64,000 nucleotides of DNA from Gordius albopunctatus (GCA_964276515.1 OZ193909.1:1302001-1366000), one strand, 5' to 3'; counted from the first letter of the stretch, positions 6,090 to 41,800 are shown. Notes: generated by a model not told the origin, from the letters alone. Program-made: numbers and translations.

Positions 6090-6665
6090 TAGTTCCCGCA
6101 TCACAAAATGTCACAGGTATCATAAGGATATCTCAAAAAATTTACATGTGCTAAATTATTGCCTGTTACGACCGCGCATCTAAAAATGTCACAGGTATCA
6201 TAAGGATATCTCAAAAAAAATTTACATGTGCTGAATTGTTCCATTGGTCAGTACCAAGAGACGGTCTATTAATACATAAGAGTCAAAAAAACGAAAAAAA
6301 AATTTCGATTCACTCTTTGGCCAATGGTCATTTTTTTCATTAGTCAGTACCAACAGATGGTCTATAAATCAATGTTAGCCAAAAAAAACGAAAAAAAAAA
6401 ATTTCGATTCACACTTTGGCCGATGGTCATTTTTTCCATTGGTCAGCAGCCAGCGGACGGCCAAAAAGTCATATTATCAATGGTAAACAAAATATAAATT
6501 TTTTTGGCCGCCCTGGGTATCGAACCCCATATCTAGAGAGGCAAAAGCGTTAAGCGTGTGTAGATGCGGTGGCGTTACACGTTCGGTGCGTGACATGACG
6601 GTGCGTTACACTTCGGTGCGTTACTTCGGAAAATGGAAAGTGAGCCCATAAATTGCATAGCAATT
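6090..6665 (-). mobile_element. Partial copy of the Helentron/DINE-1-like family also found at 32837-34527
   Basis: Reverse complement of the same 5' end (AATTGCTATGCAATTTATGG...CTTTCCATTTT) at ~6630-6665 and the same ~78-bp GAAAAAATGACCATTGGCCAAA tandem units in opposite orientation. Confidence 0.65.
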
Positions 6666-14688: not shown

Positions 14689-17600
14689 ATGTCTAAACGC
14701 GAAAAAGTTGTGCTGGCATATTCTGGTGGATTGGATACTTCGTGTATTCTTGTTTGGCTGCAAGAAAAAAATTATGATGTTATTGCATTTATGGTAAACT
14801 TATAATGATTCTATAAAATGGATTTGTGTAGGCTAACATAGGGCAAAAAGAAGACTTTGAAGCTGCCAAAGAAAAGGCCCAAAAGTTAGGTGCTATACAA
14901 GTATGATATTACCAATAAATTACATTTAAATTTACCAAATTTTACTATTTATAATTAATTATTTTACTGCTAGAATATTTGTGCACTAATTTAAGTTATT
15001 CTCATAATTAAATATTTAAGGTAATCATCAGTGATGTAAGAGAAATCTTTGTGACAGATTACATGTTTCCACTTCTCAGATCAAGTGCAATTTACGAGGA
15101 TCGTTATATGTTAGGCACTGCTATAGCCAGACCCTGTATAGCAGCTGAAATGGTAAAAGTTGCCAAACTACTTGGTGCTTCTGCTATTTCACACGGTGCA
15201 ACTGGGAAAGGAAATGATCAAGTAAATTTATTTTTTAAAAGCTATCAAGCTCCATATTGCAAAGGAATTAGTTCATAATGATTTACAGTTTTAAAGGTGA
15301 TTGGGAAGCTATAATTTTTGATTACAATTATTTCTCAGTATTATTTGTTTTTACCCAATTTATCTACATACTATTTAATGACCACTTGATAAGACAAACA
15401 TTTATTAAAGTCATGAATAATAGAAGTTAATGACATTAAAAGTAAAAAATGCTTAAAAAATAGCTAGCTACTAGTGTCCAACTTGCAATTATTTGTTTTA
15501 AATTGCACTCCATGGCTTGGAAACTATCAGATATAACCTTTGCTGGGTTGTTCTATTCTTATTTATTTTAAAATTAAAATTTTTCAAAAGTATTTACCTC
15601 AAGTTGTATTGTTACTTTTACTAAATCTCTCATTAAAAAACAAAAATGAAGGAAAAAAGACATATCTTATCAGAGATCTGATATATTTGAGGAATATTAT
15701 TACATTTTAATGATAATGCAAATAATGATTAGAAACTTTTGAAATATGCTATCCCTTCCATACTGGTTTGTATTTTAAGTAGTGCTGTAAACATTTGTAA
15801 AAAAATCGAACGCGTTCACGTTCGTTCAAAATTTTATGATAAATTTTTTTAAAGTTTAAATTAATATAAATAAATACCCATGATAAAAAATAATAGTTTT
15901 ATTTCGACAATATAATTATAAATCAATATAATCTATTTTCTTATTTATTTTTAATAATAATTGTTTTTCAAAATTGTCTTCTGATAAGCAGGAACGCTTG
16001 GCAGTTAATACAGCATTAGCTAAACTAAAAACCTGCTCCACAGGGGCAGATGAGGGGATTGGAGTATTATACTTAATAAACAAACTTTTTAAAGGAGGAA
16101 ATTTATTAAAAACTTTTAATGTTTTGTCCCTCGCTTCAAAAAATTGCGACAAGATATCATCCTCCAATGCGCCCTCTACTTCCTCGCCAAAAAATGATAT
16201 CTCTGAATCGACAGCTCTTTCATTATCAATTCTAGGGGTTTCAATCCCTTTTTTCAATAACACTAAAAGTTTATTCTTTATAGGTTCATTTTAATTATTG
16301 AATTTGATCTTTTATATGAAACGAGTGAAAAATATTTTTCATATTTTGGCCATGGCAATTTCAATTCATCTGCTGATTTTGAATATTCAGAATCTGAAGA
16401 TGACGACGATATAATATTATGATTGTCCGTATTAACCTATAAATTAAACTATAATTAATAATATCAAACTAATTAACTTTAATCTTATCTTCTTTTGCAC
16501 GTTATAGTATGTTAAAAGTATTTCGGAATTGGCAATAGGAAACAGGAAAAACAGCTGATTAAAAAATATAATACTTTTTTGTTAAAAATTCGGATTGACA
16601 TTAATTTTAAACTAAATAAAAATAAAAAAGGGTTTTTAAAATTGAAAGAACGTTAAATTCGAACGCGTTCATCAAAAAAAAGGAACGCGTTCACGTTCAA
16701 AGTTCATCAAAAAATAAAAGAACGTCGTTCATGAACGCGTTCATTTACAGCACTAATTTTAAGTAATATTGCTTAAGATATTGGGCATTATAATTCTTCT
16801 CCCCAAAAAAGACTTATTGGTAAAAAATACTGTTGAAAATCTTTGATTAAACGAAACAATTTTAAAAGGTTTATTAATATTTTTATTCCAAAAGTCTAAA
16901 TATTTGTACTTTTTCACTGAGAATTTTTTGAAAGATGGAAAATTACTTTTAGATGTATTACATCAATAGTAAGCCTATAAAAAGTGGAAAACCAGCTATG
17001 GGAGTCATTGAGCAAGTTTCCGATGCAAGATATGAGTGTCGTAAATTGGTTGGGTTTTGCTCGGTTGACCCCTTTGCCTTTAGTCGACTAAACATAAAGA
17101 GAGACCAAAGGTTTTTGGTCACTTTTTTTCTTATTCAACCAAATTGCTTGGTCGAAATTTGGAAAAAAGACCAGAGTCAATCGTTAGTATTAGTTGAACC
17201 CCAAAGGTTGACCTAACAACAACACCCAGCCGTTTTTACAACCCCCTACAAAGTCTCTTCTTACTCTAAAAGATTTAAAAGAAAAATGCATTTTTTGGCC
17301 TCGAGCACTTATATCATCTATTACTATGATACCCGAATTAAATGATTTTTGCCCTAGGAATATTGTTAAGAAATTATCTACAGCAACAAATTGGCATCTT
17401 AATTGTCAATCGGATGTTATAATTAATAAGCCTACTAGGGCAAGTTTGAAAAGGAGAGTAGATTGTTTTTTACTAGCACATGTAGACAAGGAGGAGGACC
17501 ATGTTTTGTAGTATGCAGGGCGTAGGCTGGGGGGGGGGACAGGGATGGGCGGTTCCCCCACTCTTAATCCAAAAAATCTTTAAAATTTAATATGTTGACG

Positions 17601-21949: not shown

Positions 21950-23233
21950 TGTTTCATTGCTTGACCCCTTCCCTTTCTAGAGTTAAAAGTTTTTTATTTA
22001 CACCAAATTATCTTAATATTTTTGAATTTATTATTTATTTATAAAATTCGTAAGGTTTGTTTTTTACTCTAAAATCGTTTGCCCGATTATATCGCCAATC
22101 AATTAATTTGTGTTTTATTGATTGATTATAGACAAAAAGCGATTTTTCATCGTTGTATCAATAAACCTCTTTACATAAAAAACTCTTTGTAGCGTAGATA
22201 GTTCTACTTAGCCTAAAAATTGGAATTAATTGAAATTACCTTTTCTAAATTTAATCAAACACACGTGTCTGGAACGCATCTTTTTAAAGCGAGAGCGCTT
22301 AAACTTTAGTTTTCAATGTCAAATCGGTACTATTCAGCCGATCATATCACGATTTCTTAGAAACTAAGAATATTTGTATTAAATTCCATAAGATTTAACT
22401 TATTTAGACCTCTAATTTTTTAGTTGTGATTGCTCAAAGATCAGAAATCGGCCTTTTAGAACATCTGGTTATGAAGCTGATTTCATAAAATTTCCTAGTT
22501 AATCGTAAAATCTTGTAGGTACAGGTAAGACCGGGCTGTCTGCATAGAAAAAATATTTTTGACCGATTGCTCATCTATTTGTTGTTGTTAAATCGTTTTA
22601 AATTTAAAACAAACGTTTTTTTACCGCCTATAAAACAATTTTAATGAGAATGGGATTTGGACGACATTAAATAATGACCAAAAGTTAAAATGAGTAATAT
22701 TAATTTTGGCGCCAAAATGACTACAAAAAATATGTTAATGCTAGTTAACATTCTTATAAGTATCTATAAACAATAATTTGCTGAGGAATAATCAAAAAAG
22801 ATTGAATAAGCGAGTGCCGTTTTCAATTAATAGGCAAGAAGATTGTTTTTATTACAGCAACTTCTTAAAGCAACTATACAACAGTAAAATGTTTTTAGGT
22901 ACAAATATTTTTTAATATTTTTTTCCCGTAGTATTGCAGTCTAAAACTCTTAATCGCAAATCGGATTATCGCGGAAATCTTATCGCGATATTAACAAAAA
23001 CATCGTTAATTGACTGACAAATCGCTTAATAGTACAATATTGGATATTCACAAACATTTTCGAGTTCTTAAATCAACCATACAATTATATAAAATATCGT
23101 TTTATTGCGAAGCGTAGGAAATGAATATTTACTATATGTCTTTATATATTTAATATTTTCTCTTTTTCCATCGTTTAAAATATGTGATCGCGTACAATGA
23201 ATAAGTGAAAAATCGGGGTGTGTATAGAAAACG

Positions 23234-23340
23234 AAATTTAGGGAATAGGCTTGGGGACAAGTCGGGCGAAACAGGTGAGGAGGGTGTCACGTAGGAAAAA
23301 AGACAAGTGACACCCGGAGGGCAGACGGGTGTATTTATAC
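23234..23340 (-). promoter_or_regulatory. Terminal direct repeat of family 1 with TATA box, Inr-like motif and stem-loops (second copy 26023-26129)
   Basis: Minus strand: TATAAATA, then TCACTT ~30 nt downstream; inverted repeats ACACCCG/CGGGTGT and GGGTGTCAC/GTGACACCC. Confidence 0.6.
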
Positions 23341-23358
23341 CAGGATGCGTAGGGTTTG

Positions 23359-25206
23359 CTAGGGTTCTAGATCGACTATTTCGACCGGTATTTCGTTTTC
23401 CCAAAAACCTAGATCGATGTCGTCTTCCTCTGGAAGCCCATGCTGGAGGATATAATCGATATCTGTGTTTGTTTGCTCCCTGTCTGGTACTTCGGGGGCC
23501 CATACTCGAGACGGGTGATCGGCCGGGTTCAGATGTGTTGGAATCCAGGATAGGTTAAAGTGTATGTTGAGCAAGTGTTTGATGCCCCATGTTTTAACGA
23601 AGGTGGCTACGACTTCCTCGATAACTGGGGAGTTAGATCCCCCTTTTTTGAGTACGTAATATGCTGTGGCTGAGTCAGTGAATAGCTTTGGGTGATCGTG
23701 CCCGCTAAGGTATGAGCGGACGTAACCGTATAGAACGGCCACGGTTTCTGATAGGGTGATGTGATACGGTTCCCTCCATTTCCATCCCAGAAAAGCTGCC
23801 GCGTTTTGGAAGCTATTAGAGTGTTCTCCGTAGTCATCCATTATCCCGATATGCGATCCCGATGCATCAACGTAGACGATATTGGATGGCTTGACCCAGA
23901 GCGGTATGGTTTCGTGTGTAAGCTTTAAGATACCCATGAGTTTATGTGCGGCGAGGCTTCTATCGAACCATGGGGGGTTGTCTCTTGTGAGGCTGTAAAA
24001 ACTGGAAAAGAGTTTAGACATACCCGTGAGATTGTAAAAAAAGTAGTTGAGGATGCCCAGCGCTTCGAGCAATGTGTTTGCGGGGACGTCTCGTGTGAGT
24101 GCCAGGAAAAGGATGTCGGCTGCGATTTGAAGTCGGTCCGCGGTTCCCGGTTTGCATTTGACGGCGGAGACGTCGAGCTTCAGCTCCATTCCCAGGTATT
24201 CTATGCGTTGGGACGGCATGATGGAGGATTTGCTTACGTTAATCGTGAGGCCCCATGCTTTAGAAAGATCAGCCAGGGCTTCGAGGTCTTCTTGAACGTT
24301 GTCATATTCGTGAGAGTATATTAACAGGTCGTCCAGGTAGACGTTGTACTTTGAGTGCTTGATGGCTTTTTTAGCTAGGTCGCTAACGATCATTTGAAGC
24401 ACAAACGGGGAGAAGGAGGCTCCCATCGGGAGTACGTTGTACTCGTATGGTTTTCTCCTCCAAACGTATCCCAGATATTTCTTGGTGCTGGGGTGAATGG
24501 GTATGGAGAAGAATGCGGCCTTGAAGTCTATTTTGGCCGCCCATCTGGCTGCTGCTAGGTGCTTGGCGGTGAGTGGTATATTTGCCAGTTTCAAAGGTTT
24601 TGGCAGAAAGTTCCTAGAAGCATGTGACAAATCTGTGATTACCCTGGCATCTCCATTTGGTTTAGCAATGAAGAACGTGGCCGAGCGGATTAGGAGTTTC
24701 GCTGTCCTTGATACAATACCCGCTTTTAGCATTTCCGGAAAGTAGGCCGGAGGTCCCTTTGAGTATCTTTTCGATTTAGGAGGTTGTATCAGCCCTCCAT
24801 TTAATCGGATGTTGTAGGCATCGAGGATGGCCTTGTAGCCATAGGTGGCTACCTTTTTGCTAAACGGCGACATGAGGTCGTGTGGCGTGAGGCGCGAAGT
24901 TCTGATATCGAGGGCCCCGCTTGGTTTAACAGAAGAAGACGCTCTGCTCCAGCCAAAAAGCACTTTGTGCTCTTGTATTAGGGATCGGATTTGTCCCGAT
25001 CCCGCGTCCCGGACGAGGGAAGGCTCGGAGTCCGTGAGTCGTTGCTCTGACTCAGTAGGAGATGGCGGAGCGTCAGTGTGTGGCGGCGGAGTGGACGGCG
25101 GTGTATCCGGCAGCTTCGGTTCGTCGTCATTTGGCGGTGAAAAGATAATGCGTCGCGCTTCCCTAAGAAAATGAAAAACACTTTTAAGCCACATGGGGGA
25201 AGCCAT
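23359..25206 (-). CDS. Reverse transcriptase-RNase H polymerase (DIRS/hepadnavirus-like); frame open upstream to 25392
   Basis: FFIAKPNGDARVITDLS, KIDFKAAFFSIPIHP, LPMGASFSPFVL, YLDD, KS..PSQRIEYLG; RNase H VDAS, ITLSE, TDS, WIPTHLNPADHPSR. Confidence 0.93.
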   Translation of the reverse strand: MASPMWLKSVFHFLREARRIIFSPPNDDEPKLPDTPPSTPPPHTDAPPSPTESEQRLTDSEPSLVRDAGSGQIRSLIQEHKVLFGWSRASSSVKPSGALDIRTSRLTPHDLMSPFSKKVATYGYKAILDAYNIRLNGGLIQPPKSKRYSKGPPAYFPEMLKAGIVSRTAKLLIRSATFFIAKPNGDARVITDLSHASRNFLPKPLKLANIPLTAKHLAAARWAAKIDFKAAFFSIPIHPSTKKYLGYVWRRKPYEYNVLPMGASFSPFVLQMIVSDLAKKAIKHSKYNVYLDDLLIYSHEYDNVQEDLEALADLSKAWGLTINVSKSSIMPSQRIEYLGMELKLDVSAVKCKPGTADRLQIAADILFLALTRDVPANTLLEALGILNYFFYNLTGMSKLFSSFYSLTRDNPPWFDRSLAAHKLMGILKLTHETIPLWVKPSNIVYVDASGSHIGIMDDYGEHSNSFQNAAAFLGWKWREPYHITLSETVAVLYGYVRSYLSGHDHPKLFTDSATAYYVLKKGGSNSPVIEEVVATFVKTWGIKHLLNIHFNLSWIPTHLNPADHPSRVWAPEVPDREQTNTDIDYILQHGLPEEDDIDLGFWENEIPVEIVDLEP

Positions 25207-25282
25207 GTCTTTATCACCGTGGGGAATCGGTAAGCCATCAGGCCCGAATTCCCAGTTTGCTGCTGCTTTGTGAAGGCGCTTT

Positions 25283-26011
25283 CTAACCCCTGGCAGGGGC
25301 CGCGTCCTTTTTGACGTTGCGACCCTTAGGTGCGCCTCCGCCCCTGCCAGCTCTCGGAAAAAACTGCCTTCGTTGGGCGTCTTTTTTGACGTCTACGTCC
25401 GGCATTCTCATTTCTTTAAGCCAGGCCGAGTCTTGTGAGGCGGCTGTTTGCCAGTTGAATTTTATCGCAAGACACATCTTCTTGAGTTGGTCGTCTATTG
25501 GGATTAATTCTTCTAGGGTCATCGGTATTCGAGTGAGTTTCGCGCAATGTATCGCGAATTTAGCCTCGTGCTTGTCTCTCTTGGCTGCCTTGTTGTCGGG
25601 GTCTAGGATTAGTTCTTCTAGGCCCCGTCGGTGCAGGTTGATATCATCCAGTACCGATGCGATTGTGCGCGGAGGTTCTGGTGCTGGCATGATTTGGAGA
25701 GTTGACGGTGCCCCCTGCTGCGCATTTGGTGGCATTGTGGGGGTAGAAGCCATAGGTACGGGCCCCAGTGATGTCCGCTGTAGCAGTTGCTGGAGGGCCT
25801 CAGTTTGAACCCTTTGGGCTTCGGCTTGTCTTGTTAGGGCGTTAACGGCCGTTTCCTGCATAGTGGCTATTCTAGCCAGTAACCCCTCAACCGCATTGTC
25901 AGAGCCCATTCCAGACCTTAAGGTCGTATTAGTAGGAGGCGAGGTCATAGAAGTTTCTGGAGTTATTAAGAAAAAACTATTATGTTGGTCTTGGGACCTT
26001 GTATTCACCAT
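25283..26011 (-). CDS. Gag/core-like ORF1 of retroelement copy A
   Basis: 242 aa directly upstream of pol; coiled-coil-like N-terminus, Pro-rich linker, helical domain (KHEAKF, KFNWQTA), RG-rich basic tail; conserved in copy B and family 2. Confidence 0.7.
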   Translation of the reverse strand: MVNTRSQDQHNSFFLITPETSMTSPPTNTTLRSGMGSDNAVEGLLARIATMQETAVNALTRQAEAQRVQTEALQQLLQRTSLGPVPMASTPTMPPNAQQGAPSTLQIMPAPEPPRTIASVLDDINLHRRGLEELILDPDNKAAKRDKHEAKFAIHCAKLTRIPMTLEELIPIDDQLKKMCLAIKFNWQTAASQDSAWLKEMRMPDVDVKKDAQRRQFFPRAGRGGGAPKGRNVKKDAAPARG

Positions 26012-26377
26012 TCACTATTAAAAAATTTAGGGAATAGGCTTGGGGACAAGTCGGGCGAAATAGGTGAGGAGGGTGTCACGTAGGAAAAAAGACAAGTGAC
26101 ACCCGGAGGGCAGACGGGTGTATTTATACATTGGATGCCTAGGGTTTTGTTATGGTTCTAGATCGACTATTTCGATCGGTATTTCGTTTTCCCAAAAAGC
26201 CAGGTCAATGTCGTCGCCGTTTGGAAGCCCGTGCTGGAGGACGAAATCGATGTCCGTGCTAGTTTGCTCGCTATCCGGTATGTCGGGGGCCCATTGCCGG
26301 GATGGTTTATCGGCCGGGTTCAGGTGTGTCGGTATCCATGATAAGTTGAAATGTATGTTGAGCAAGTGTTTAACCCC

Positions 26378-27330
26378 TAGAGGTGTGCACGCATCAATCC
26401 GATCCGATCCGTCCGAACTCGGATCGGATCGGATCGGATTAACATTTTAATTTTGGAGATCGGATCGGATCGGATCAACATTTTATTTTAGTCGGATCGG
26501 ATCGGATACAATAATAATTAAATTAATAATTTTTAGTATACCTTTTCGTAATTATCTTTGCATTCTTTTTTTACTTTACCATTTTTGATGCCCAATACCA
26601 CCTCCTTACCCCTTACTTACCCTAATATATTTATCAGAATTTCCCTAGCGTTTTTCCCTAGCTAGACGTAGACACGCATCTCTTTCTATTTGATTTCAAC
26701 TCAACTCCGAAAATCATCAATCACTCCTCTCCCCTTTCCTTAAAGCACACGCGTAGCTCCTTTCCCTCTTGATTCCTATCCGGGTAATCATGAATGATGT
26801 AGCTTGCCTTCTTAGAAGCAATCTCCATGGTGCGATTGCAAATATGATTCAAAAAAAGATTTGCTGAAATGGTGGGTTTCATATCAAACAGTCCTGCCAA
26901 GGCTTTATAAGCTGGCAAATAAATTTTTAGCTATACCTGCTACCTCTACCACTTCGGAAAGAAATTTCTCGGTGGCTGGAAGAACATTAGAAGAAAGAAG
27001 AACGGGAATTAAACCAGAAAATTTAGATTCTTTATTATTTTTATATAATAACATGGAATTAGTCAAATAAAATTTTATATTTCAAGTATATTAAAATTGC
27101 TATACCTTATTTTTATGTATTTTGAATTTAATCATCAATAAAAAGTTCTGTTCGTAAAATTTTAATTAAAAAATTTCGGATCGGATCGGATGGGATTTAG
27201 ATTTTAAAAAACTCGGATCGGATCGGATTTAGATTTTAAAAAACTCGGATCGGATCGGATGGATACGAAATTTTTTAAAAACCCCTCGGATCGGATCGGA
27301 TCAAAAAAATTTGATCCGTGCACACCTCTA
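26378..27330 (+). mobile_element. Non-autonomous hAT inserted in the RNase H region of copy B
   Basis: TIR TAGAGGTGTGCACG / CGTGCACACCTCTA; TSD TTAACCCC (26370-26377, 27331-27338); (ATCGG)n subterminal repeats; ORF 26861-27070 LKWW..LAIPATSTTSERNFS. Confidence 0.95.
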
Positions 27331-29384
27331 TTAACCCCCCACGTTTTCACGAAGGTTGCTATTACTTCTTCGATGACGGGGGAATTCGATCCCTCTTTTT
27401 TAAGCACGTAGTAGGCTGTAGCCGAGTCTGTTATCAGCTTGGGGTGATCGTGGCCGCTGAGGAAGGAGCGGACGTACCCGTAGAGGACTGCTACCGTTTC
27501 GGATAGGGTAATGTGGTATGGTTCCCTCCATTGCCATCCGAGGAACGCTGCCGCATTTTTGAAGCTGTTGGAGTGTGGCCCGTAGTCGTCCATTATCCCG
27601 ATATGTGTCCCTGACGCATCTACGTAAACGATATTGGACGGTTTGACCCAGAGCGGTATGGTCTCGTGAGTTAACTTCAGGATCGCCATGAGTTTGTGTG
27701 CGGCTAAGTCCTTGTCAAACCATGGAGGATCGTCCCTTGTGAGGCTGTAGAAGCTAGAAAAAAGCTTGGACATACCCGTAAGGTTGTAGAAGAAGTAGTT
27801 GAGAATACCCAACGCTTAGAGTAGTGTGTTGGCCGGAACGTTTCGTGTTAGTGCTAGGAAGAGGATATCTGCTGCCACTTGTAGTCGATCCGCTGTTCCT
27901 TGCTTGCATTTGATGGCCGAGACGTCGAGCTTGAGCTCCATGCCTAAGTATTCGATGCGTTGTGATGGCATGATTGAAGATTTGGCCACGTTAATTGTTA
28001 GGCCCCATGCCTTGGCTAGGTCTGCTAGGCTTTCCAAGTCCTCTTGGACGTTGTCGTAATCGTTAGAGTATATTAGGAGATCGTCCAAGTAAACGTTGTA
28101 CTTTGATCGTTTGATTGCCTTCTTGGCCAAATCGCTCACTATCATTTGGAGCACGAAAGGGGAGAAGGAGGCCCCCATGGGGAGCACGTTATATTCGAAC
28201 GGTTTCCTTCTCCATACGTAGCCTAGGTACTTTTTGGTGCTCGGGTGGATTGGTATAGAGAAGAACGCGGCCTTGAAATAGATTTTGGCCGCCCATCTAG
28301 CCGCCGCTAGGTTCTTGGCTGTGAGTGGTATATTGGCTAGCTTCATGGGTTTGGGGATGAAGTTTCTAGAAGCATGTGAGAGATCGGTAATTACCCTAGC
28401 ATCCCCGTTGGGTTTTGCTATGAAGAAGGTGGCTGAACGGATTAAGAGTTTCGCCGCTCTGGATACGATGCCTGCTCGTACCATTTCCGTGAAGAAAGCC
28501 GGGGGGCCCTTTGAATACCTTTTCGATTTGGGGGGTTGTGTTAGCCCCCCATTCAGCCTGATCGTATACGCATCTAAGATGGCCTTGTAGCCCGATGTGG
28601 CTACTTTCCTGCTAAACGGCGACATGAGCTCGTGCGGCGTTAAGCGCGAGGTCCGTATGTCGAGGGCGCCGTCAGGTTTAGCGGTAGAGGACGCTTTACT
28701 CCAGCCGAAAAGCACCTTGTGTGCTTGTATCAGGGATCGGATTTGTCCCGATCCCGCGTCCCGGACGAGGGAAGGCTCGGAGTCCGCAAGGAGCTGTTCC
28801 GATTCTGTCGGAGATGGCAGGGCGTCGGTATGTGGCGGCGGAGTGGACGGCGGTGTGTCCGGCAGCTGCGGCCCGTCGTCATTCGGTGGCGAAAAGATTA
28901 TGCGTCGCGTCTCCCTAAGAAAGTGAAAAACACTTTTAAGCCACATAGGGGAGACCAAATCTGAGTCGCCATGGGGAGTCGGTTAGCCGTCTGGCCCGAA
29001 CTCCCAGTTTGCTGCTATTTTGTTGAGGCGTTTTCTAATTCCTGGCAGGGGGCGCGCCCTTTTTGACGTTGCGGCCCTTAGGTGCGCCTCCGCCCCTGCC
29101 AGCTCTCGGAAAAAACTGTCGACGCTGGGCGTCCTTCTTGACATCATCCACGTCCTGCATTCTCATTTCCTTGAGCCTTGCGAGGCAGCTGTTTGCCAGT
29201 TGAATTTAATGGCAAGGCACATTTTCTTAAGCTGCTAAACGCTAAATACCGTAAAACTTCTTAAGAATTTTACTATAATTCACCACCCTATTTTTCTCAT
29301 ATTTATCGTTTCTCGCACTCTGTCCGAACCTCTGTCGCTCGTAGATATAAAATTTTTACCCACCTTTTTCCCAAAATCTAGTAT

Positions 29385-30106
29385 ATGCCAAGGAAAGTCC
29401 CCTCGAAAAGCGTTGACGACATTCCCTTAAGTAAGTTCTTTTCGAAGTCAACCACGCAACTAGATAATACCACTGTCATGGCCTCCCCTAACAAAAACTC
29501 GATGATCGCCAACCCGGAAGGTAGCACCACAGTCTCGGATCCGGCTATTAAGCTGATCCTGAGTAGGTTAGCCGAGATGGACGCGAAAATTGATAACAGG
29601 CTACTCAGTGGTAGTGGAGAAACGATCAATGTGGACGATCGGCCACATTGGGCTCCGGCCCTACCCTCGGAGTCGGTCACAATGACTAGGGCCGAACTAG
29701 AGGCGTTACTAGCGACAGAAAGGGCTCGAGCAACAAACGTCCCTAGCTCCAGCGGAGAGATATTGAAACTCCGCCTCAAAGGACTCAAGGAAGCTATCGA
29801 AACAAATTACTCAATGCCAGCCCACCAGAAACACGAGGCCGAATTCCTTCTCAGCATGGGGAATCCATAAATGACTACGATAAGACAATCGACAAATTGT
29901 CAGACCGTGTTCGCACAATTGCAATGGCCTCATACTACGGGTGGCAGGCAGTAACAGGAAAATCTAAAGACTGGGCGGAGAAGATGGGTATGGGGCAATA
30001 CACTGAGCCCGTGCAGCTTTTTCGCCCGCCTCCTAAATACAATGGTCCAAGGAAGAGAGGCGCTTACCAAAAAGGGCCGGCTCCGTCTCGGACGGAGAGA
30101 ACGTAG
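29385..30106 (+). CDS. Gag/core-like ORF1 of family 2, split by a 1-nt frameshift near 29860
   Basis: ORFs 29385-29870 and 29897-30106 join through ATGGGGAAT; the joined protein aligns with family 1 gag (GLKEAI/GLEELI, KHEAEF/KHEAKF, YGWQAV/FNWQTA, WAEKMGM/WLKEMRM). Confidence 0.72.
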
Positions 30107-31952
30107 TTATGTGAGGAAGGTATCGGCGACCCTCGGCTGTGGTGTAAACCCGCCGAGGTCGGTGAGGGATGGTACTGTTCCGGCATGGCTTAACAACTAC
30201 ACCGCCATTGCCAGAAGCATCGCTATTAATTCCATCTCTCCCGACGATGGCCCGGAGTTGGAGGAGCCGATTCATCCTACCAACGCGCCGATACCGGAAC
30301 ATACAAGTGTGCCGGGGCACCTCCTAAACCAATGGACGGAGGTGGGTTTGGATAGCGACAACCCACCTATCATCAGCGAACCGTCCAATATCCCCTCTTT
30401 CCCCTCCCATCCCCTATCATCCTTCATTAACTTTACTCATCCTTTATCTATCCGAACATCTCTCCTCAAGCCCCATTATTTGCAATCAAAATTCACCCTC
30501 AGAGTGGCTAGAAGAGGTTTCAAACCTCGGATATCCAGGGCAGCTATTGTGGCTAACAATGGGCGTTACCACTTGCCTCGATATGTCAAAGCTATCCCCA
30601 AAGAGCATAAGCCACTGGTGGACGAGGTGATACTCAGCAATATCGTAAGGAAAAACCCACTGGGTATTCCTTCCCCTATGTATTTCATTCCTAAAAGTGA
30701 CGGCTCGCCAAGGCTCATTGCGGACTTGTCACAGGTCTCCAAGAATTTCATCAAATATCCTTTTACAATCAAGTCCATTCCTCTGATCGCATCATCATTA
30801 TCTGACTCACTATACATGACTAAGATAGACATGAAGTCTGCCTTCTTCTCTATTCCTTTAGCAGTTGAATCATCAAAATTCTTCGGTTTTCGATACAGAC
30901 GGCAGAAATACACATACAAAGTGCTCCCGATGGGGGCAAGTTTCTCGCCATATGTTTTACAACAAATCATGCTAGACCTATGTAAAAAATCAATTACAAG
31001 ATCCAAGTACAACGTTTATTTGGATGATATCCTCATTTTTGGGCGGTCAGAAACCTTAGTTAAAGCCGATACTCGGCGTTTCTTATACATGGCCAAGTGC
31101 TGGAACTTAACAATAAATCGGGCCAAATCATCATTGGAACCAAAAACTACTTTGGATTACTTAGGGATCCACGTAAACCTAGAAGATCATAGCCTAAAAG
31201 TGAACGCGAAATTCATATCCAAAATCGACGCGGCAGTACAAATCATCAACCACTTTGTGGACACGGGAACAAAGCCACACCCCCTGGTTTCCCAAACATG
31301 CTTAGGAATCCTCACGCATTATGTATATATGCTGACAGGGTGGTCAAAATTCATCTCCCCGGCCTATAACATCTTTCTGGCCAGTGATCCAATCAACTTC
31401 GACAAATCATGGTTGATCAGGAAGCTTCTACTCATTCAAAACCATCTCTCAACCCCCTTTTCCATGAAGCACTCTCCTAATGGCTTCACAGCCGGCGACG
31501 CCTCCACGTCCCACATTGGCCTTTTTTATAGAGGTTCCATCCTCTCAATTGCCAAAGGGGACGCGTTAGCCATCTTTGGCTGCCACAGCCTCATTCCTAC
31601 CATTAACCTTCTAGAACTGGTTGCCATCCCCTTAGCTTACATCTGGGCACTGGTCACCACACCGCACATCACACCTAAAGTCCTCACGGACTCCAAAACA
31701 GCATTCTACATTGTGAAGAAGGGTTCGGCACACGCTCCACACCTGGAACTGGCCTTCACGAAAATCTGCAGCACCCTGGGGCTAGATCACATGTTACGTA
31801 TCAAGCAAAACCTCGAATGGGTCAGCACGGACCACAACCCGGCGGACGCACCATCACGCGAAAGCTTTTTCAACGACGAACAACTGGGCAGGATCGTTTA
31901 CTGGACGCGCTCAAACATTTCATATCACCCAGAACAACAACTAATTTGCTAA
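30042..31952 (+). CDS. Reverse transcriptase-RNase H polymerase of family 2 (intact ORF)
   Basis: YFIPKSDGSPRLIADLSQVSK, KIDMKSAFFSIPL, LPMGASFSPYVL, YLDD, DYLG; RNase H GDAS, INLLE, TDS, WVSTDHNPADAPSR. Confidence 0.93.
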   Translation: MVQGREALTKKGRLRLGRRERSYVRKVSATLGCGVNPPRSVRDGTVPAWLNNYTAIARSIAINSISPDDGPELEEPIHPTNAPIPEHTSVPGHLLNQWTEVGLDSDNPPIISEPSNIPSFPSHPLSSFINFTHPLSIRTSLLKPHYLQSKFTLRVARRGFKPRISRAAIVANNGRYHLPRYVKAIPKEHKPLVDEVILSNIVRKNPLGIPSPMYFIPKSDGSPRLIADLSQVSKNFIKYPFTIKSIPLIASSLSDSLYMTKIDMKSAFFSIPLAVESSKFFGFRYRRQKYTYKVLPMGASFSPYVLQQIMLDLCKKSITRSKYNVYLDDILIFGRSETLVKADTRRFLYMAKCWNLTINRAKSSLEPKTTLDYLGIHVNLEDHSLKVNAKFISKIDAAVQIINHFVDTGTKPHPLVSQTCLGILTHYVYMLTGWSKFISPAYNIFLASDPINFDKSWLIRKLLLIQNHLSTPFSMKHSPNGFTAGDASTSHIGLFYRGSILSIAKGDALAIFGCHSLIPTINLLELVAIPLAYIWALVTTPHITPKVLTDSKTAFYIVKKGSAHAPHLELAFTKICSTLGLDHMLRIKQNLEWVSTDHNPADAPSRESFFNDEQLGRIVYWTRSNISYHPEQQLIC

Positions 31953-32836
31953 ACGCTAAATACCGTAAAACTTCTTAAGAATTTTACTATAATTCACCAC
32001 CCTATTTTTCTCATATTTATCGTTTCTCGCACTCTGTCCGAACCTCTGTCGCTCGTAGATATAAAATTTTTCGCGCGTTAGTTATACACAAAAAATCACA
32101 TGCATAATTTTCATGCTTTATAATATATATTTTATGCATATGAGGATGATAAAATAAAACAAGAGTTAGGGGAATATCCCATTGGGACTTCCCCTTCTCA
32201 AATTTTCTAGAGTCATTGAGCTTCGCACAATTGATGGCGAACTTAGCCTCGTGTTTGTCCCTCTTTGCTGCCTTGTTATCAGGGTGGATCAGCTCCTCCA
32301 GGCCTCGTCGGTGCAGGTTAATGTCATCTAAGACTGAGGCAACCGTGCGTGGTGGTTCCGGCGCTGGCATAATCTGGAGGGTCGAGGGCCCCCCTGGTTG
32401 CGTGTTTGGCGGCAACGTGGGGGTGGAAGCCATAGGTGCGGGCCTCAGCGAAGTCCGCTGTAATAATTTCTGTAGGGCCTCGGTCTGTACTCTTTGGGCT
32501 TCGGCTTGTCTTGTAAGGGCGTTTACGGCCGTTTCCTGCATGGTGGCTATTCTAGCCAGCAACCCTTCTACAACATTGTCAGAGCCCGTTCCTGACCTTA
32601 AGGTCACATTGGTAGGAGGTGAAGTCATAGAGGTTTCAGGTGTAATTAAGAAAAAACTAATCGTTTAATCGCGAATTTTTTTCAGGCCCAAGGCTCTGCA
32701 ATTAAACGGTTTCGACTGTATAAGAAAGATTTGCTATGGAATTTGCATGCGAGCGTTATTTTACAAATTTGTGAACAAGATTCTTTATATATTTAAAGGG
32801 GTTTGTAGAAAGTGATGTTTTGTTTGGTCGATTTTT

Positions 32837-34527
32837 AATTGCTATGCAATTTATGGCTTGGCTCGCTTTCCATTTTACGAATGTCGTCTTGTTTAACTAG
32901 TTTTTGGCTTCGAAACCCGGGGATTTTTTTGACGCTTTCCATTTTCCGAGTCTTGCACGAACAGTAGCATAGATCTCCCTCGCTGTGTTAGACCTCCCCA
33001 CATCATCCCTCTCTCCTTATCGATTTTTTTAATTAAAACGAGATACGTGCGGGAATCGAAACTAGTATCTATTGAAGCTAAGTGAGACGTTTAATCCGCT
33101 GAGCTATTACACCTGAAAATATTTATGGGATAATATCACTTATATATAGCTATAACATTTATTTTTTTTAAATTAAATTAATATTATGTTTTTGTTACCA
33201 TTGATATTTACCCTATGCCCGTCAGTCCAATTATTTAGAGATTCTCGCCCCTTCCCACCTTTCTCACCCATAAATTGCATAGCAAATATGCTACTTTTAT
33301 ACAGAGTATAGAAGAGTTCCCCCTTCCCTTCCCCTACTCCCATTGCCCCCTTCCTCTTACCACGAGGGCCGAAGCCTCGAGTTTTATGATTGTTCCTGTT
33401 ACTACCAATGCTATTATAACTTTTTGGCCGTCCGCTGGCTGCTGACCGATGGAAAAAATGACCATTGGCCAAAATGTGAATCGAAATTATTTTTTTCGTT
33501 TTTTTAGGCTAACATTGACAATTACCCTATGCCCTCCCCTAACAGAGCCTAAAAAAATATTTTTTTAATTAAATTTTTTTTCCGGTTTTTTTGACTCTTA
33601 TGATTGTTCCTGTTAATACCATTTGATAATATGGCTTATTGGCCGTCCGCTGGCTAGTGATCAATGAAAAAAATGACCATTAGGCAAAGTAAGCATCAAA
33701 ATTTTTTTTCTCGTTTTTTTGGCTAACAATGACTTAAAGAGTATCTGTTGGTACTGACCAATGGAAAAAAATGACCATTGGCCAAAGTGTGTATCGAAAT
33801 TTTTTTTTCGTTTTTTTGACTCGTATGTATTTATAGACCGTCTCTTGATACTGACCAATGGAAAAAATGACCATTGGCCAAATTGTAATTTAAAATTTTT
33901 TTTTCGTTTTTTTGACTCGTATGTATTTATAGACAGTCTCTTGGTACGGATCAATGGAAAAAAATTACCATTAGGCAAATTATGATTCGAATTTTTTGTT
34001 TCGTTTTTTTGACTCGCATGTATTTATAGACCGTCTCTTGGTACTGACCAATAAAAAAAATAAACATTGGCCATATTGCTTAAGTAAAGGCTAAAATTTC
34101 AAAATGCTCCTCCCAAAATCATTATTTTAGTTTTTGAATAGGTTAACATTGATAAATTGCCCTATGCTCTCCCCTACAAGTACCTATGTTTCTACTGATA
34201 TGGGTCCCTGTGCCCCTCCCTACAAAGGCTTATGCCTCTATTTAATGTGGGTTCGAATCCCGGCGAGGGCAATTTTTTTTTTAATTAAATGGAAAATTTG
34301 TATAAATAATTAACTAATCATTTTGCATTTAATACCCCTCTATAGGCATTTTCGCCCCTTCCCACCTTTCTCGCCCATATTTTTTAATTAGATGGAAAAT
34401 TTGTATAAACATTTTGCATATAACGCCCATAAATTGCATAGCAAATATGCTACGTTTATACGGAGTATAGATGAGTCGTCCCCCCTTCCCTTGTCCCCTC
34501 CCCAAGAGGGCCGAAGACCCGAGTTTT
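32837..34527 (+). mobile_element. Helentron-associated / DINE-1-like non-autonomous element with internal ~78-bp tandem array
   Basis: 5' subterminal IR AATTGCTATGCAATTTATGG after a T-run; its inverse CCATAAATTGCATAGCAAAT at ~33268 and ~34427, each followed by GAGGGCCGAAG(CCT/ACC)CGAG-TTTT; tandem units ~33420-34080; interrupts a MITE. Confidence 0.65.
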
Positions 34528-35886: not shown

Positions 35887-38800
35887 CTATTTTGGTGCAT
35901 CTCCTTTCCCAATTATAGTCTTGTGGTCTTCGGAGGGTTCCTCTTTCAAAAATTGACTAATTTTCTCCTGAAATAAATGGACCATAAATGTTATAGTTAC
36001 GAAAAGTTTAATGTAATAACAAATTTAGAGTAAATTAAATGAAAGTATATTTTAGCTTACGCCAGGTTCACACATTAAAGAGAAGGTTATATTTTTCATG
36101 TGCAGATGTGTAATCTTATGTTTGATAAATCGTACTTTTATCATGTAATATGTGTATTTGATTGGTATTTTTAGTGTGCGAATTAAAATGCCTTAGATGG
36201 TGTAAAGCATTTCATTTGCTGCAATCGAGTGGTTTATTGCCTTTCATAAATTATAAATGGTAAACTCTACACATAATACTTTGATGCATCAGTGTAATTA
36301 AATTAACTGTACAAACAAAACGGATAAACTGAACGTAAGGAAAAATTATTTGTCTTTCAGATGAGGAGACTGCTTCATTAGCTATTAAACAAATCGGTAA
36401 TTTCAACTGGCAATTTTCAGACAAAATTTAATAACTTTTATTTGTCGTTAAATATATCAATGCTTCTCTCAAACCTAGATTATAAATTTTTCCAATAACC
36501 TTGATTTAAATTTAGTAAGATTAATAAGGAATCACCATAAATATCGGCTAAAATCGTAGTAGAGTTACCTTTAATTCCGGATCTAAATCCTCGAATGGGA
36601 TGGGATAGCCTCGACCGTCGTCGTACAAAGTTTCTTCAAAAGTTTCCGTCTCTTCTTTCCCATCTTTGATTATAGTCCGACTTTTGGTGGATTTCATTAT
36701 TTTAAGCCTGAAAATAGAAAAATTAGTTGGGCGTTTTCACCCATGCAATTCGACAGGAGGTCCGAAATATTTATTACGTCGAGTAAATAGATTTATTTTA
36801 GTACTATTTTATTTGACAAATTATAACGTTTAGATATCTGCGCTTGAATTATAACTCTTTCAACGCGTTGCAAGTCCCTCTCGAATTTATATTATTTTAT
36901 AAATTTAATGACAAACCTTTTCCGTTCTCAACAGGAATTTTATTTAAAGAATCAAAAATGAAAAGAGAAATTACCTCTTTAAAACTGATTCCCCCTCACG
37001 CTCGTGCTGACTTTCCGAGTGTTGATGATCTTCGGATGTGTCTGCCGAATGAGTAATAAAAAATAAACTTATATACGCCTAAAAGTTAAAGCCACGATAA
37101 GGGCAATTATAAGCGCTGGGGGCTGTTTACATAGACACCAATTTCACGAAACCAGGACGAACGCGAAGCGAAAGCAAAATGGCGAGATAATATATATGTG
37201 TGTGTGTATCGTTGGTGTTGGTAAAACGGGGCTGCGTTTTGTTTGCTCGACCTTTCGTCTGTTTTTCAAATTTCGACCAAGCTTTGGGGTCGACAAAAAC
37301 CAAGGTCGACCCCCAAAGAAGCCAGCCGTTTTACCAAAACTACACAATGTGTATCATGTAGTACTGGATGAAGGTAACGTAGGAGTAGTTGTGAAAGATT
37401 TCAATTTAGAGGCGGCGGTGGACGACGATGATAGGTTAGAAGAATGAAAAGTGTTGCTGAGACTGGCTGTGGTAGCAATAGTGGTATCCTGATTCAGGGT
37501 TTCGGGCGGAGGGGAGCAAGCAAAAAAATGTCTATCTTCGGTCAAAAAAATTGGTTCACCCGCGGTCGTTGCGGGAACAGCTGATAGGGTACCAGCCATC
37601 GCCTCGGCTTTAGGTTCGTCTTGAGGAAGAGGCAATGCACCGGTTATAATGTCGGGTCCGGGCTGAGATGATAATTTTCTCTTGCGGACCGGCAGGTCGT
37701 GGCCCGTAAAAATTCGCGTTACCGGGGCGTAAGGTTCGTTGGCGAATATACTAGGAGCCGCCGCGTGATTTGAATCGTGAGAGCCGTAAACCCAAGGCAA
37801 CAGTCGCTGCTGTTCCCCACCACTACTCTCCACGACCGACGAGCGAGCTGTGGTCGTGGTGGAAGAAGATGGGTCCGCTGGTTTGGAACGAGCTCGACCG
37901 TTGCTGGAAGAAAGTGTTGAGGGCGGAGCCGACGGAATTTTAGAAGACTTGACTGGCGTTTGCGAGACTACGACCTTGCTACTACTAGTACTACTCATCT
38001 TTTTACCGAGCGTCGTTTTTTGTTCGCTCAACACAATTTGCTGTTGCTTACTCGAAGACGACGACTTGCCATGGCTTCGCGTTTGACCCGTAGTTGTTGT
38101 GGATACAGTTTTACCAACTACCACGTGATTCGCCGATGATAAAGTTTTTTTGGAGTTAGAAAAGTTGTCGCGCGAACGTAATCGCCCCTTTTCCGCCACG
38201 TGACTTTCGGATGAGGATTCTTCCGTTACCACCTTGTTAGACCGTTTAGGTATGCCGGTGTGTGTCAATCTTTTAGTGGACTCTTTGGGGGGCGAAGGTT
38301 TTTGTTTGGCGTTGAAAACGCTTTTAGCGGTGGTGACGGAAAAAGCAGTTTTAGGGCCGGTAAATGGCTTAGATTGACGATGGGGGGACATTCGCTGCTT
38401 GCGTACCGATCTAGAAGTTTTGGGAGAAGGAAACTTGGATGGCCTTGCAGGCGAAGAATACAATTTCGCATTCAACGATGTAAGGGAAGAAAGCATCTTT
38501 TTCCTTTCTCCTCCCTTGCCCGAATCGTTGCTGCCCTGAAAAAGGGTGTCGTCGTTTAAACTTTTAGCATTTCTCCCCGTTGCACCTTCGATATCCAAAT
38601 CGTCCATTGATCTTCTCTCCAAATTTGAATTGATTAAATCGTATTCGGTGACGAACGCCTCAACCTTTTTGGACGTAGATTCGATAATGGCTTCTAATGA
38701 TTCACAATCCATCACCGGGGGACTGATAATCGTTATATCACTTTGATCCATGGATTTCGTTTGAATTACGGGCTCCGGTTTACTCAGCCACACGAAATCA

Positions 38801-41800
38801 TCTTTTTCGTAGGAGCTAGAACCTCCAGAATCTGTATGATCTGTCGAGTAAGCCGACAATCTCATTTCCTCGTTCGTTTCCTCACAACCTGTCTCAGTAA
38901 CCTCGACCAGAGGTGAAACACTGGGAGGCGTATCGCTGTTTCCCCCCTGAGCCATTATGATGGACTCCAACTCCCGGAACCGCTGCAACGATATGTCGTC
39001 CCCGTTACTACTATTAACGAAAGTTTTAGTGGTCGTGGCAGGCGAGATAGGTACTACGACAGGTACAACCTCCTCTATTTTCTTATCTCCTTCACCATCA
39101 CTTAAAGGGTTTTCGCGATTGGACGGAGTATCCCCGACCAAATCGGTGGCTGCGACAGGTAGGATTCGAAATCCAGCTAGTGGGGTAGCTTCTCGGTCCT
39201 CTTCGTAGGTGGAGGCTGAGGCTTTGCAGTCGTCCATGGTAAGGATGGGAGGAAGGGGGGAAGATGGTCGGCGTTCGCCGAAGCTACTCGATTCGCGATA
39301 GCCGGTTCGAGACATGGGCCTCGTTATTAACATTTGTTGCCTAGGCGTGGCTTGATTATCCCTCAGGCGATCGCTACCACTACTCTCCTCTTCCCAAGAC
39401 GAAAGTATATCTAGCGAGCCTTCCATCCCTTCTTCAACGAACGATTCGTCCTCGTTGGAATAATAATTATCGAAGGCGGATGACGTTTCTTCGTCCTGTG
39501 AAGCGGTACCCGAAGTGGGTCCGTAACTGTACAAATTATCGCTCACCGTGGGCGGCAAACGAGTTGTCGTCGTGGTAGTAGTCGTGACATTTCCCTCCCT
39601 ATTACTTTGAGGTGGTGGTAGGTAAGGAGCCTTTTCTTCCGGCAAGCTAGGCATCGGAGAGGCCCGAGCCGTAGTGCTGCAACTCAAGGCGTCTTCTTGG
39701 GATAAGGGACCCCCACCACCGCTCACGCAGGTGTAGAACGATGAAGTGTCCCCTCCACCGGTTAAGCCACCGCTAACGGCCGACGCAAAATCTCTGGTGC
39801 GTACGCTATCTGCCGTCTCGTAGTCGCCAGTTTCGTCGCACGCCAAAGAATCGTCGTTATTTTTGCGAAGGAAATCGAAGGATTCGCCGCCTGACGAATC
39901 GTTGTTGGAAGATGTTAGGGAAGTTATGAGTAACTGCGACGTGGCTAGATGTAGGGGAGCGGGTTGATCCGTACCAATTTCCTTGGGCGTTATGGCGGAG
40001 GGAGAGCCCACGTCGCTACTATCCATGGCAGCGTCGTGGGTTATGGGTGATTTGAGCGCTACAATATCATCCTTCTTAACGTCGCTAAGTATCGGCGTTT
40101 GGAGGTCTATTAATTTTCTATTTTCGGGCATCGAGAAGTTTTGCCCCTCTTATCACCAAAAAGGCAAAATAATTAGCAGCGTCATTATCAAGTTTCCAAA
40201 GACAACGGTACATGCTTCTCCAATTGCTCGCGAAACGACACGTCATGCGTCGATTTTCGGTGCAGCCTAGAGTAGTAATACGCTCACGATTGGTTTTACC
40301 ATGCTTCATATTTACAACGACCTTTCGCCCTGGGCACGGCTTTATTAATAACGGCAACTTCAAGCAGGCAGGCAGGCAGACAGAGAGCCAGCCAGTCAGC
40401 AAGCAGGCGCTTCAGCTATGACGCAGTAATTGTTACGTTCTGTCGATGTGATAGCAATGAGTCGGGAAATTTAGAAATCAGACTAAAGATAGGTGATTGG
40501 ATTGAGAGAAATAAAGGAAAACTATTTATTATTACTAAATTTTGAGTTTATTTTGCTTAGATTTCCCTTCGTTCTACACGATAAAACTTGACAAACGATA
40601 GAGTTATTGATGGGAAATGAAGGTTTAGAACACGAATACCGTCAGGTCGCTACGCAAAGCTGGCTCACATTTATCATGCGAAAGCGTACAATCCACACAC
40701 GACATCGAATATAAGACATATTATAAAGCATATAAAGATGGAAATACGTGATTTAATATGGGCAAAATAAAACAAATTAAGCATATTTTATAACTCAAAA
40801 TCATACGAAAGATTAATTTCTAATCATCTGGACACATAGAAAAAAGTCATAAGAGCCTTGCAAATTATGGCCTAAAACTTAAAAATTATATTAAACATCA
40901 ACCTTTATATTTATTTAAGCCAGTTGCTACATATACTGTAAAAATATAAAAACATGCATATTATTTTAAAAAATATGGCGTAAAAGGTTAAAAATATTTG
41001 TATATTGTCAGTAAATGGCGCTCACGACATATAGCTCTCTCTACAATCACTCAACACCGCACGAATGATTCGATTAGATGCAATCGGCATTTGATACGAG
41101 CACGACAAATCTACCGTGCTACAATTGTACACTGGACTTTAGGTTTTGTGACTAGAAAGGAGGTTGGAAGCGACGTATATCAACGCGGACAACGGACACG
41201 TACGTACACCACTGTAAGCCTCTACACCCCACGATGATATAATACCTCGGGAGAGGGGTGTTGTCGGAGTGTTGAGGGCCGATCTCGTTAAATATCGTCT
41301 TTTGCACTCTTCGTCCGGCGAATAATCCAAAGTTTCCAAGGCCCGAGCCATCGCCGTTCCACTTAAATACCTACCGAATTTTTCCACGTTTGGCCCGGGG
41401 TGGGCAGATGTCAAAGGAGAACGTTCGAGGTCAGAGCCTTCGATTTGCTCCCAAGCAGTTAAATTAATGTTTGTGTCATCACTATCGTAATCGGTTTCGC
41501 GCCTGTCGTGACCCGCGTACAGTTTAAGTGAAGCGGCACTCTTAGGTGGTACAGAAGAAGTCGTAGTAGTGGAGTAGCGGGTTACTAGACGCTCGCTTAG
41601 CTTCTCGCGGGAGCTTTTGAGTTGCGCAGTGTCGTGCTCTTCCACAACTTCCAACGCTTTATTCAAAGCCTCCCGACTCACCCGCTGTACGATTTGACTT
41701 AGGGTGGAAGAAGCGGCACCGTCATTATCCAAATCCCAACTGCCTCCACTACCACCATTACTACTAATAACGCTTCTAGACCCCGGTGAAGAGACGTTGG

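Follow-up and report, generated by a model that had tools for sequence, protein, structure and literature searches.

HEART elements are retroelements of invertebrates that stand next to the Blubervirales, and a path leading from retroelement to virus has been proposed (PMC12691608 and PMC11551314, in their available portions). They are called enigmatic, with a mobilisation 'not yet resolved', in the accessible part of PMC12440569. For DIRS-type retrotransposons, the mechanism of DIRS-1 is treated in the available text of PMC7192593; another report, in its accessible part, finds DIRS in one mermithid only and leaves hepadnaviruses unmentioned there (10.1101/2024.06.11.598342).

Here we describe three related units at 23.2-32.7 kb of a 64,000-nucleotide stretch of Gordius albopunctatus DNA (OZ193909.1:1302001-1366000), hereafter the window. 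We lean towards reading the ORF at 23359..25206 (-) as the RT-RNase H gene of an element of 2.7-2.8 kb that carries two genes between direct terminal repeats and in which no integrase, recombinase or terminal protein (TP) is detected: likely a HEART-grade cousin of hepadnaviruses, copied from terminally redundant RNA and likely inserting at chromosome breaks. Hepadnavirus-related invertebrate retroelements are already known; new among the literature searched is this intact lineage with defined ends. No paper on the lineage or its ends was found in that literature, whose scope did not include the original HEART description. The anatomy, with its direct repeats of 107-125 nt, its domain content, the overlap of ORF1 and pol, many copies and a 5'-truncated head-to-tail pair within a 9-bp duplication, is a stronger result than the hepadnaviral affinity. 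The HEART layout of Gong and Han (2018) may already match it; the window is set against HEART here through published rows and citing papers.

Anatomy and copies of the units

Unit A lies on the minus strand. Its ORF1 (25283..26011 (-); 242 aa, helical) has 11 K/R in the last 35 residues, and the open frame of pol starts at 25392, overlapping the end of ORF1 in the +1 frame. The intact pol ORF (615 aa) comprises a low-complexity N-terminus (residues 1-110), pre-RT helices (112-167), an RT (about 170-345, with YLDD at residue 290) and an RNase H (about 440-567). Pfam recognises RVT_1 at E 7e-25 and RT_RNaseH at E 0.04; the structure model has a pLDDT of 75 and is confident for residues 110 to 570. 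Direct repeats of 107 nt, identical at 106 positions, bound the unit, whose length is 2789 nt. The 5' copy (26023..26129 (-)) opens with a TATA-like box, followed by a 9-bp inverted repeat and a tract rich in pyrimidines, and the 3' copy (23234..23340 (-)) begins 18 nt past the pol stop. Beyond it is a 55-nt tail (23179..23233 (-)), partly common to other copies; contigs matching from 23186 and 23209 carry other flanks. The pol stop region (23345-23372 (-)) contains AACCCTAG/AAACCCTA, like reversed telomeric repeats.

Unit B (26130..32659 (-)), with 81% nucleotide identity to A, stands head-to-tail upstream of it, is joined at A's 5' repeat and is 5'-truncated 11 codons into ORF1. Three things interrupt it: a stop at 27816-27818, a hAT-type DNA transposon remnant in its RNase H end (26378..27330, no strand assigned; Dimer_Tnp_hAT E 1e-19) and unit C. 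Without the two nested inserts, B and A together measure 5536 nt, about two units. The pair is flanked by a 9-bp target duplication, ATCGTTTAA, at 23170..23178 (+) on the left and at 32660..32668 (+) on the right, where it directly adjoins the truncated 5' end of B; as a chance control, 39 of 20000 random 9-mers drawn from the window fall in the left junction zone of 60 nt. The hAT remnant has terminal inverted repeats and an 8-bp duplication of its own, TTAACCCC; we also note GATCG-rich subterminal arrays in it and a very high summed read depth.

Unit C, 2714 nt long, is inserted on the opposite strand inside ORF1 of B, with no clear target duplication at its ends. Its 125-nt direct repeats (29233..29357 (+) and 31947..32071 (+)) show no differences and are followed by a tail of about 100-145 nt. 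ORF1 (29385..30106 (+)) carries a frameshift near 29,860 and is homologous to that of A, with 28% identity over the N-terminal part and an E of 3e-5 for the C-terminal part. The intact pol (30042..31952 (+); 636 aa) is 36-37% identical to A pol, and its stop codon falls within the 3' repeat. The repeats of A and C both have TAAATAC near the start and AAATTT at the end, though they are otherwise unalike.

Self-comparison finds one simple direct repeat per unit in A and C; it shows neither inverted ends nor an internal complementary region nor repeats split as A1-B1-A2-B2. By Pfam, the 6 ORFs and 18 of the 42 stop-to-stop frames of at least 70 aa contain no tyrosine recombinase (YR), integrase, protease, methyltransferase, TP or core; of Ortervirales features, neither a DDE integrase nor an aspartic protease is found in these same 6 ORFs and 18 frames. 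Since A and C, only 37% alike, each stop at the 3' repeat or shortly ahead of it, the lack of an integrase or recombinase is a trait of the family and not a lesion.

ORF1 of unit A, with its basic Arg/Lys/Gly-rich tail, likely encodes an RNA-packaging, gag/core-like protein. It has no match in Pfam or in the Atlas, its structure model is poor (pLDDT 47), with generic helical bundles as the only structural matches, and hhalign against six orthohepadnaviral cores gives a probability of 0.1%. Proto-nackednaviral cores are described as very divergent in the available part of PMC11551314.

Both genes are under purifying selection. Between A and B, synonymous and non-synonymous codon differences number 148 and 38 in 380 codons of pol, 69 and 12 in its RNase H part, and 59 and 13 in ORF1. 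Read contigs come from runs X1 and X2, of the same organism as the window, and from a third run of another study. An assembly artefact or a dispute over the frame is unlikely, since exact-match contigs cover pol in both X1 and X2. In these two runs, contigs at 80-100% identity span all units, and there are many diverged copies; a repeat-spanning contig of X2 is about 20 times deeper than the exact-match contig (3568 vs 166), a rough hint that gives no copy number. Copies lacking the hAT insert are seen (contig joint 26369 to 27331), and at other loci contigs join the flanks in an empty-site-like manner around one copy of the 9-mer (23166 to 32659 and 23178 to 32660). In the third run, related sequence is present but shallow in depth, and the 3' tail adjoins a different flank. 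Loose ends at 23340, four contigs each in X1 and X2, may be 5' ends of elements or divergent pol tails. A joint from 26276 to 23495, considered as a circle, is explained by a copy resembling B then A. The ORF1/pol overlap of unit C (30034-30387) has a summed depth of 91,972 in X1 against about 13,000 in its neighbours, about seven times as much; perhaps this peak is a short non-autonomous derivative.

Motifs, profiles and phylogenetic placement

The first-pass annotation had seen hepadnavirus-type signatures in the polymerase, and the strings it quoted do exist: six of the seven sit in unit A pol, at residues 188, 227, 259, 558, 158 and 113, and the seventh, RLIADLSQVSK, belongs to unit C pol at residue 224. 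The HBV motifs it set beside them are all found in the HBV P proteins P0196/P0271. We asked how specific such motifs are among labelled rows, taken from the best 150 of 13536 HMMER matches at E<=0.001. The counts cover 6 rows of the window family, 16 hepadnaviral, 44 DIRS-like and 7 gypsy rows, and a short RT-RNase H group of 17 rows picked by eye and from the first tree; a further 83 unlabelled matches are uncounted. The DIRS-like label denotes a methyltransferase-like tail, detected with a pattern of our own and confirmed only weakly by Pfam in 2 of 60 proteins scanned.

The Met of PMG is present in all family (6/6) and hepadnaviral (16/16) rows, in 7/17 of the short group, in 1/44 DIRS-like and in 0/7 gypsy rows. 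NPAD at the RNase H end occurs in both intact window pols, in 16/16 hepadnaviral rows, in 12/14 of the short group and in 4/44 DIRS-like rows. On these counts, PMG and NPAD are the two signatures that separate hepadnaviruses from DIRS-type proteins. The Phe of the AF motif is present in 6/6 family, 16/16 hepadnaviral, 13/17 short-group, 8/44 DIRS-like and 3/7 gypsy rows, and the Ser of D-x-S (6/6, 16/16, 7/17, 18/42 and 2/7, in the same order) is a weak discriminator.

EMLKAGIVSR, proposed earlier as a counterpart of the hepadnaviral T3 motif, proves to be a generic pre-RT helix of most LTR-type RTs, found also in DIRS-like and gypsy rows. Its Gly is not specific (family 3/5, short group 10/17, DIRS-like 25/41, gypsy 6/7), and one gypsy row carries LEKAGIIAQ at this place. 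From this Gly to the RT motif there are 25 residues in unit A pol, versus 178-273 in hepadnaviral P proteins, T3 having been located in 13 of the 16. Pre-RT profiles all match T3 weakly: E is 0.006 for the family with the short group, 0.044 for DIRS-like and 0.017 for gypsy rows, and 0.12 for a reversed control. The likeness may reflect true homology, T3 lying almost directly next to RT1 in a model of HBV P (10.1101/2022.02.16.480762, available part). Even if homologous, the T3-like helix does not single out unit A pol. A shared 'GF/GI-K-P' motif upstream of T3 was also considered; the profile alignment did not reach that far.

The earlier remark that unit A pol has no full TP domain or spacer that can be recognised is confirmed by the profile comparisons. 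At E<=1, the window pols have no Pfam match to the hepadnaviral TP (PF00242) or C-terminal domain (PF00336). A TP profile of 15 hepadnaviral N-termini, which holds no nackedna- or proto-nackednaviral TPs, aligns with the family over only 15 columns, at a probability of 0.6%. Against ten hepadnaviral P proteins, the family profile aligns along RT and RNase H, over 351 columns with 21% identity (E 9e-24), and nowhere upstream of the RT. With a hepadnaviral RT-RNase H profile, the best family member ranks 38th of 155, and the medians are 74 bits for the family vs 73 for DIRS-like rows, so that no special affinity emerges. PF00336, missed by the window pols, is reached at E<=0.001 by 7 of 60 scanned matches.

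The three best HMMER matches, among the best 150 listed, are Gordionus sp. proteins (XP_065317776.1, XP_065315139.1, CAK9296138.1; Nematomorpha), 35-40% identical and annotated only as uncharacterised; of the two that are complete, one extends 9 and the other 90 residues past RNase H. Word-based protein searches return no close relative (2 and 9 matches), and no match listed in the protein searches bears the HEART name. BFVD does not discriminate: an unnamed 634-aa viral protein comes first (TM 0.48), caulimoviruses next and HBV P 12th. Among solved structures, the matches listed are RTs of Ty3, foamy virus, MLV, CaMV and HIV and include no hepadnaviral P. In the ESM Atlas, the nearest clusters hold unnamed proteins, their few named members being Euglenozoa, the hosts of VIPER/TATE elements; the cluster of hepadnaviral P ranks 23rd of 30.

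In a FastTree RT tree of 171 rows, the family, seven short-group proteins and 16 hepadnaviruses are joined with a support of 97, and an IQ-TREE mixture-model RT tree of 65 of those rows recovers the same grouping with hepadnaviruses at 92/83. The RT+RNase H tree of 51 rows unites window and Gordionus proteins in one clade (100/99), separates the family RT from gypsy rows (100/100) and joins the family to P0154 (98/93), within a 28-row clade that includes hepadnaviruses (95/93) and also two proteins with methyltransferase-like tails (P0028, P0122). The sister of hepadnaviruses there is a metagenomic H-[IV]-D-D group (97/90), not the window family. Placement is limited mainly by sampling: none of the trees includes HEART, nackedna-, proto-nackedna-, Ngaro or VIPER/TATE sequences.

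AU tests were run on 33 rows with LG+G4 and quick trees. A family placed as sister to all 12 DIRS-like rows is unrejected (p 0.39), and so is its union with hepadnaviruses (p 0.31), which the trees do not find. Family, hepadnaviruses and H-[IV]-D-D group together are as likely as the free tree (p 0.55). Nesting the family in a 9-row or a 4-row DIRS subset, both chosen after the tree was seen, is rejected (p 4e-4 and 2e-5). From these comparisons the window family appears to lie outside the sampled DIRS core, in a loose short RT-RNase H clade that contains hepadnaviruses, and not to be their sister. The suggested affinity thus survives in part: three trees stand on the hepadnavirus side, as do PMG and NPAD, but the grouping is loose, another lineage is the sister and profiles rank the family no better than DIRS. 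A position firmly inside DIRS was not obtained, the three trees placing the family outside the sampled core and the two nestings being rejected.

By eye, tick HEART rows (supplement of PMC12691608, as available) resemble the family at D-x-S-H-L and P-F-V-x-Q-M. Seven HEART rows in it have PFG and a degenerate (Y/H)(I/L)DN, whereas the window has PMG, YLDD and intact frames. It is the H-[IV]-D-D metagenomic group, and not the window family, that looks most HEART-like. Of the metagenomic RTs that form the hepadnavirus sister group in the trees (P0039, P0049, P0141, P0146, P0060), four have H-[IV]-D-D, and three of the four looked up lie on 2.0-3.3 kb contigs. This group, which by eye resembles published HEART rows, may be closer to the origin of the Blubervirales than the window family.

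Replication, insertion and rival origins

In the reading that we favour, transcription would run from behind the TATA-like box in the 5' repeat into the 3' repeat, and the ORF1 protein would bind and package the element RNA. The RT would start on a DNA or RNA 3' end, not on its own tyrosine, RNase H would clear the template, and the enzyme, at the 5' repeat of one RNA, would jump to the 3' repeat of that RNA or of a related one. Such a jump would restore the promoter and, by chaining two RNAs, would explain the B-A pair, whose 81%-identical units are joined exactly at the repeat; alternatively, A may have entered the repeat of B at a later time. Insertion would take place at a staggered break that the host or some other element had produced, hence the 9-bp duplication. 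Penelope-like elements form 5'-truncated partial tandem copies and rebuild their promoter by template jumps; they have an unrelated RT class, no RNase H and a GIY-YIG endonuclease. The window units share the partial tandem 5'-truncated copies but have RNase H and no GIY-YIG. Counting against our reading are the unrejected sister position to DIRS in the AU tests (p 0.39), the want of hepadnaviral profile affinity and the unclear duplication of unit C.

DIRS-type elements account for most database matches and share with the window a gag-like ORF1 overlapping an RT-RNase H ORF, the lack of a protease and similar pre-RT helices. It is improbable, although the strongest of the three rivals, that the units are a recombinase-less offshoot of tyrosine-recombinase retrotransposons (Ngaro- or VIPER/TATE-like) served by a recombinase in trans, their hepadnavirus-like motifs being due to convergence or to the affinity already known between VIPER RNase H and hepadnaviruses, with which it groups (PMC6681497, available part). 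Unlike DIRS-type elements, the window units have neither tyrosine recombinase nor methyltransferase; no YR is found in the frames scanned and there is no room for one. Their repeats are simple and direct, without the inverted ends, internal complementary region or split repeats that self-comparison could reveal. The RT is outside the sampled DIRS core, with nesting in two DIRS subsets rejected, and the pair has both a target duplication and a 5' truncation. Neither is typical of recombinase insertion, and DIRS elements usually lack duplications. With the Blubervirales the units share an RT-RNase H with PMG and NPADxPSR, a unit of about 3 kb, the lack of integrase and protease, terminal redundancy, and a first ORF with a basic tail that overlaps the start of pol. 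They differ by the absence of TP, priming tyrosine, spacer, envelope, recognisable core and conserved epsilon-like RNA, by 21% identity over 351 columns, and by being chromosomal and multi-copy. We consider it quite improbable that they are an endogenised non-enveloped reverse-transcribing DNA virus, a circle of ~2.7 kb with ORF1 as diverged core, integrated as terminally redundant linear DNA. The unit size and the +1-frame pol overlapping a basic-tailed ORF1 do recall a core/P layout, the best BFVD match is viral, and several short RT-RNase H relatives lie on 2.3-3.7 kb contigs, but short contigs are the norm in metagenomes. All described Blubervirales have a TP (PMC11551314 and PMC12691608, available parts), ORF1 finds no match among the six orthohepadnaviral cores compared, and the copies are many, chromosomal and accompanied by a target duplication. 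Among the IMG/VR contigs scanned no relative appears: 0 of 36 candidate stretches are related, then 1 of 39 is a 24% match on a long polyprotein contig, and a proto-nackednavirus-type pattern gives 4 matches, on contigs of 30-119 kb.

We give little credence to the idea that pol represents the direct pre-TP ancestor type of hepadnaviral P, priming on its own tyrosine through a hairpin of the repeat RNA, although PMG, AF and NPAD fit it, the T3-like helix is the best, if weak, match to the TP profile, and the tree uniting family, hepadnaviruses and H-[IV]-D-D group does as well as the free one. The unit A repeat does fold into an unbulged 9-bp stem (z -4.65); the C repeat, however, does not fold stably (z +0.4 to +0.7 and -0.5), variants in other copies (positions 23288 and 23311, among the rows listed) break the A stem and do not compensate, and the repeat RNA has no Rfam match to epsilon and no conserved stem-bulge-stem. 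Among five family rows, none of 5 N-terminal tyrosines proves conserved, the pre-RT helices of DIRS and gypsy rows give T3 matches of similar weakness, and the family is not the sister of hepadnaviruses in either the IQ-TREE RT or the RT+RNase H tree. Nothing we see in the sequence would support protein priming by unit A pol. An ancestral pre-TP state, as first envisaged, is not demonstrated. Another group is sister to hepadnaviruses, and the window polymerase is better described as a probable cousin that lacks a TP, like the elements known as HEART.

A wider view can be offered tentatively. The units would belong, as intact members active until recently, to a widespread and undescribed class of reverse-transcribing replicons with two genes in about 2.7 kb, with hepadnaviral core/P layout and terminal redundancy but neither TP nor integrase, a pool that gave rise to both HEART and the Blubervirales; T3 would be an ordinary pre-RT helix cut off by insertion of the spacer, protein priming having been added later at the N-terminus. 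Should the wider clade with hepadnaviruses hold, a TP-less enzyme built on the same RT-RNase H plan would offer a reference for studying how protein priming of the hepatitis-B type arose. HEART rows published so far are few, and many bear changes at catalytic positions. Here, intact frames in two lineages, together with defined ends, a target duplication and a product in tandem, make the priming mode and the insertion route of an integrase-free element directly testable.

Surroundings of the cluster

The window consists of AT-rich animal DNA in which the host genes are split by introns. Several exons at 17.9-21.9 kb (+) belong, by eye from their translations, to what we take to be an argininosuccinate-synthase-like gene, and the retroelement cluster starts about 1.2 kb past the last such exon seen. 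The cluster flanks (22950-23170 and 32669-33200) are a high-copy host repeat with a summed depth of 100,000-460,000 in X1; the element pair was thus inserted into another repeat. On the minus strand, at 37354-40131, 41139-44948, 46162-50157 and 58026-58451, there are very long single-exon low-complexity ORFs (925, 1269 and 1331 aa). An exon upstream of them recalls an ankyrin UPA domain, and we presume a giant ankyrin gene. A second hAT-type remnant lies at 15916-16263. At 33400-34080, an array of 96-97-nt units with 64-92% identity has inverted copies 27 kb away, at 6229-6485.
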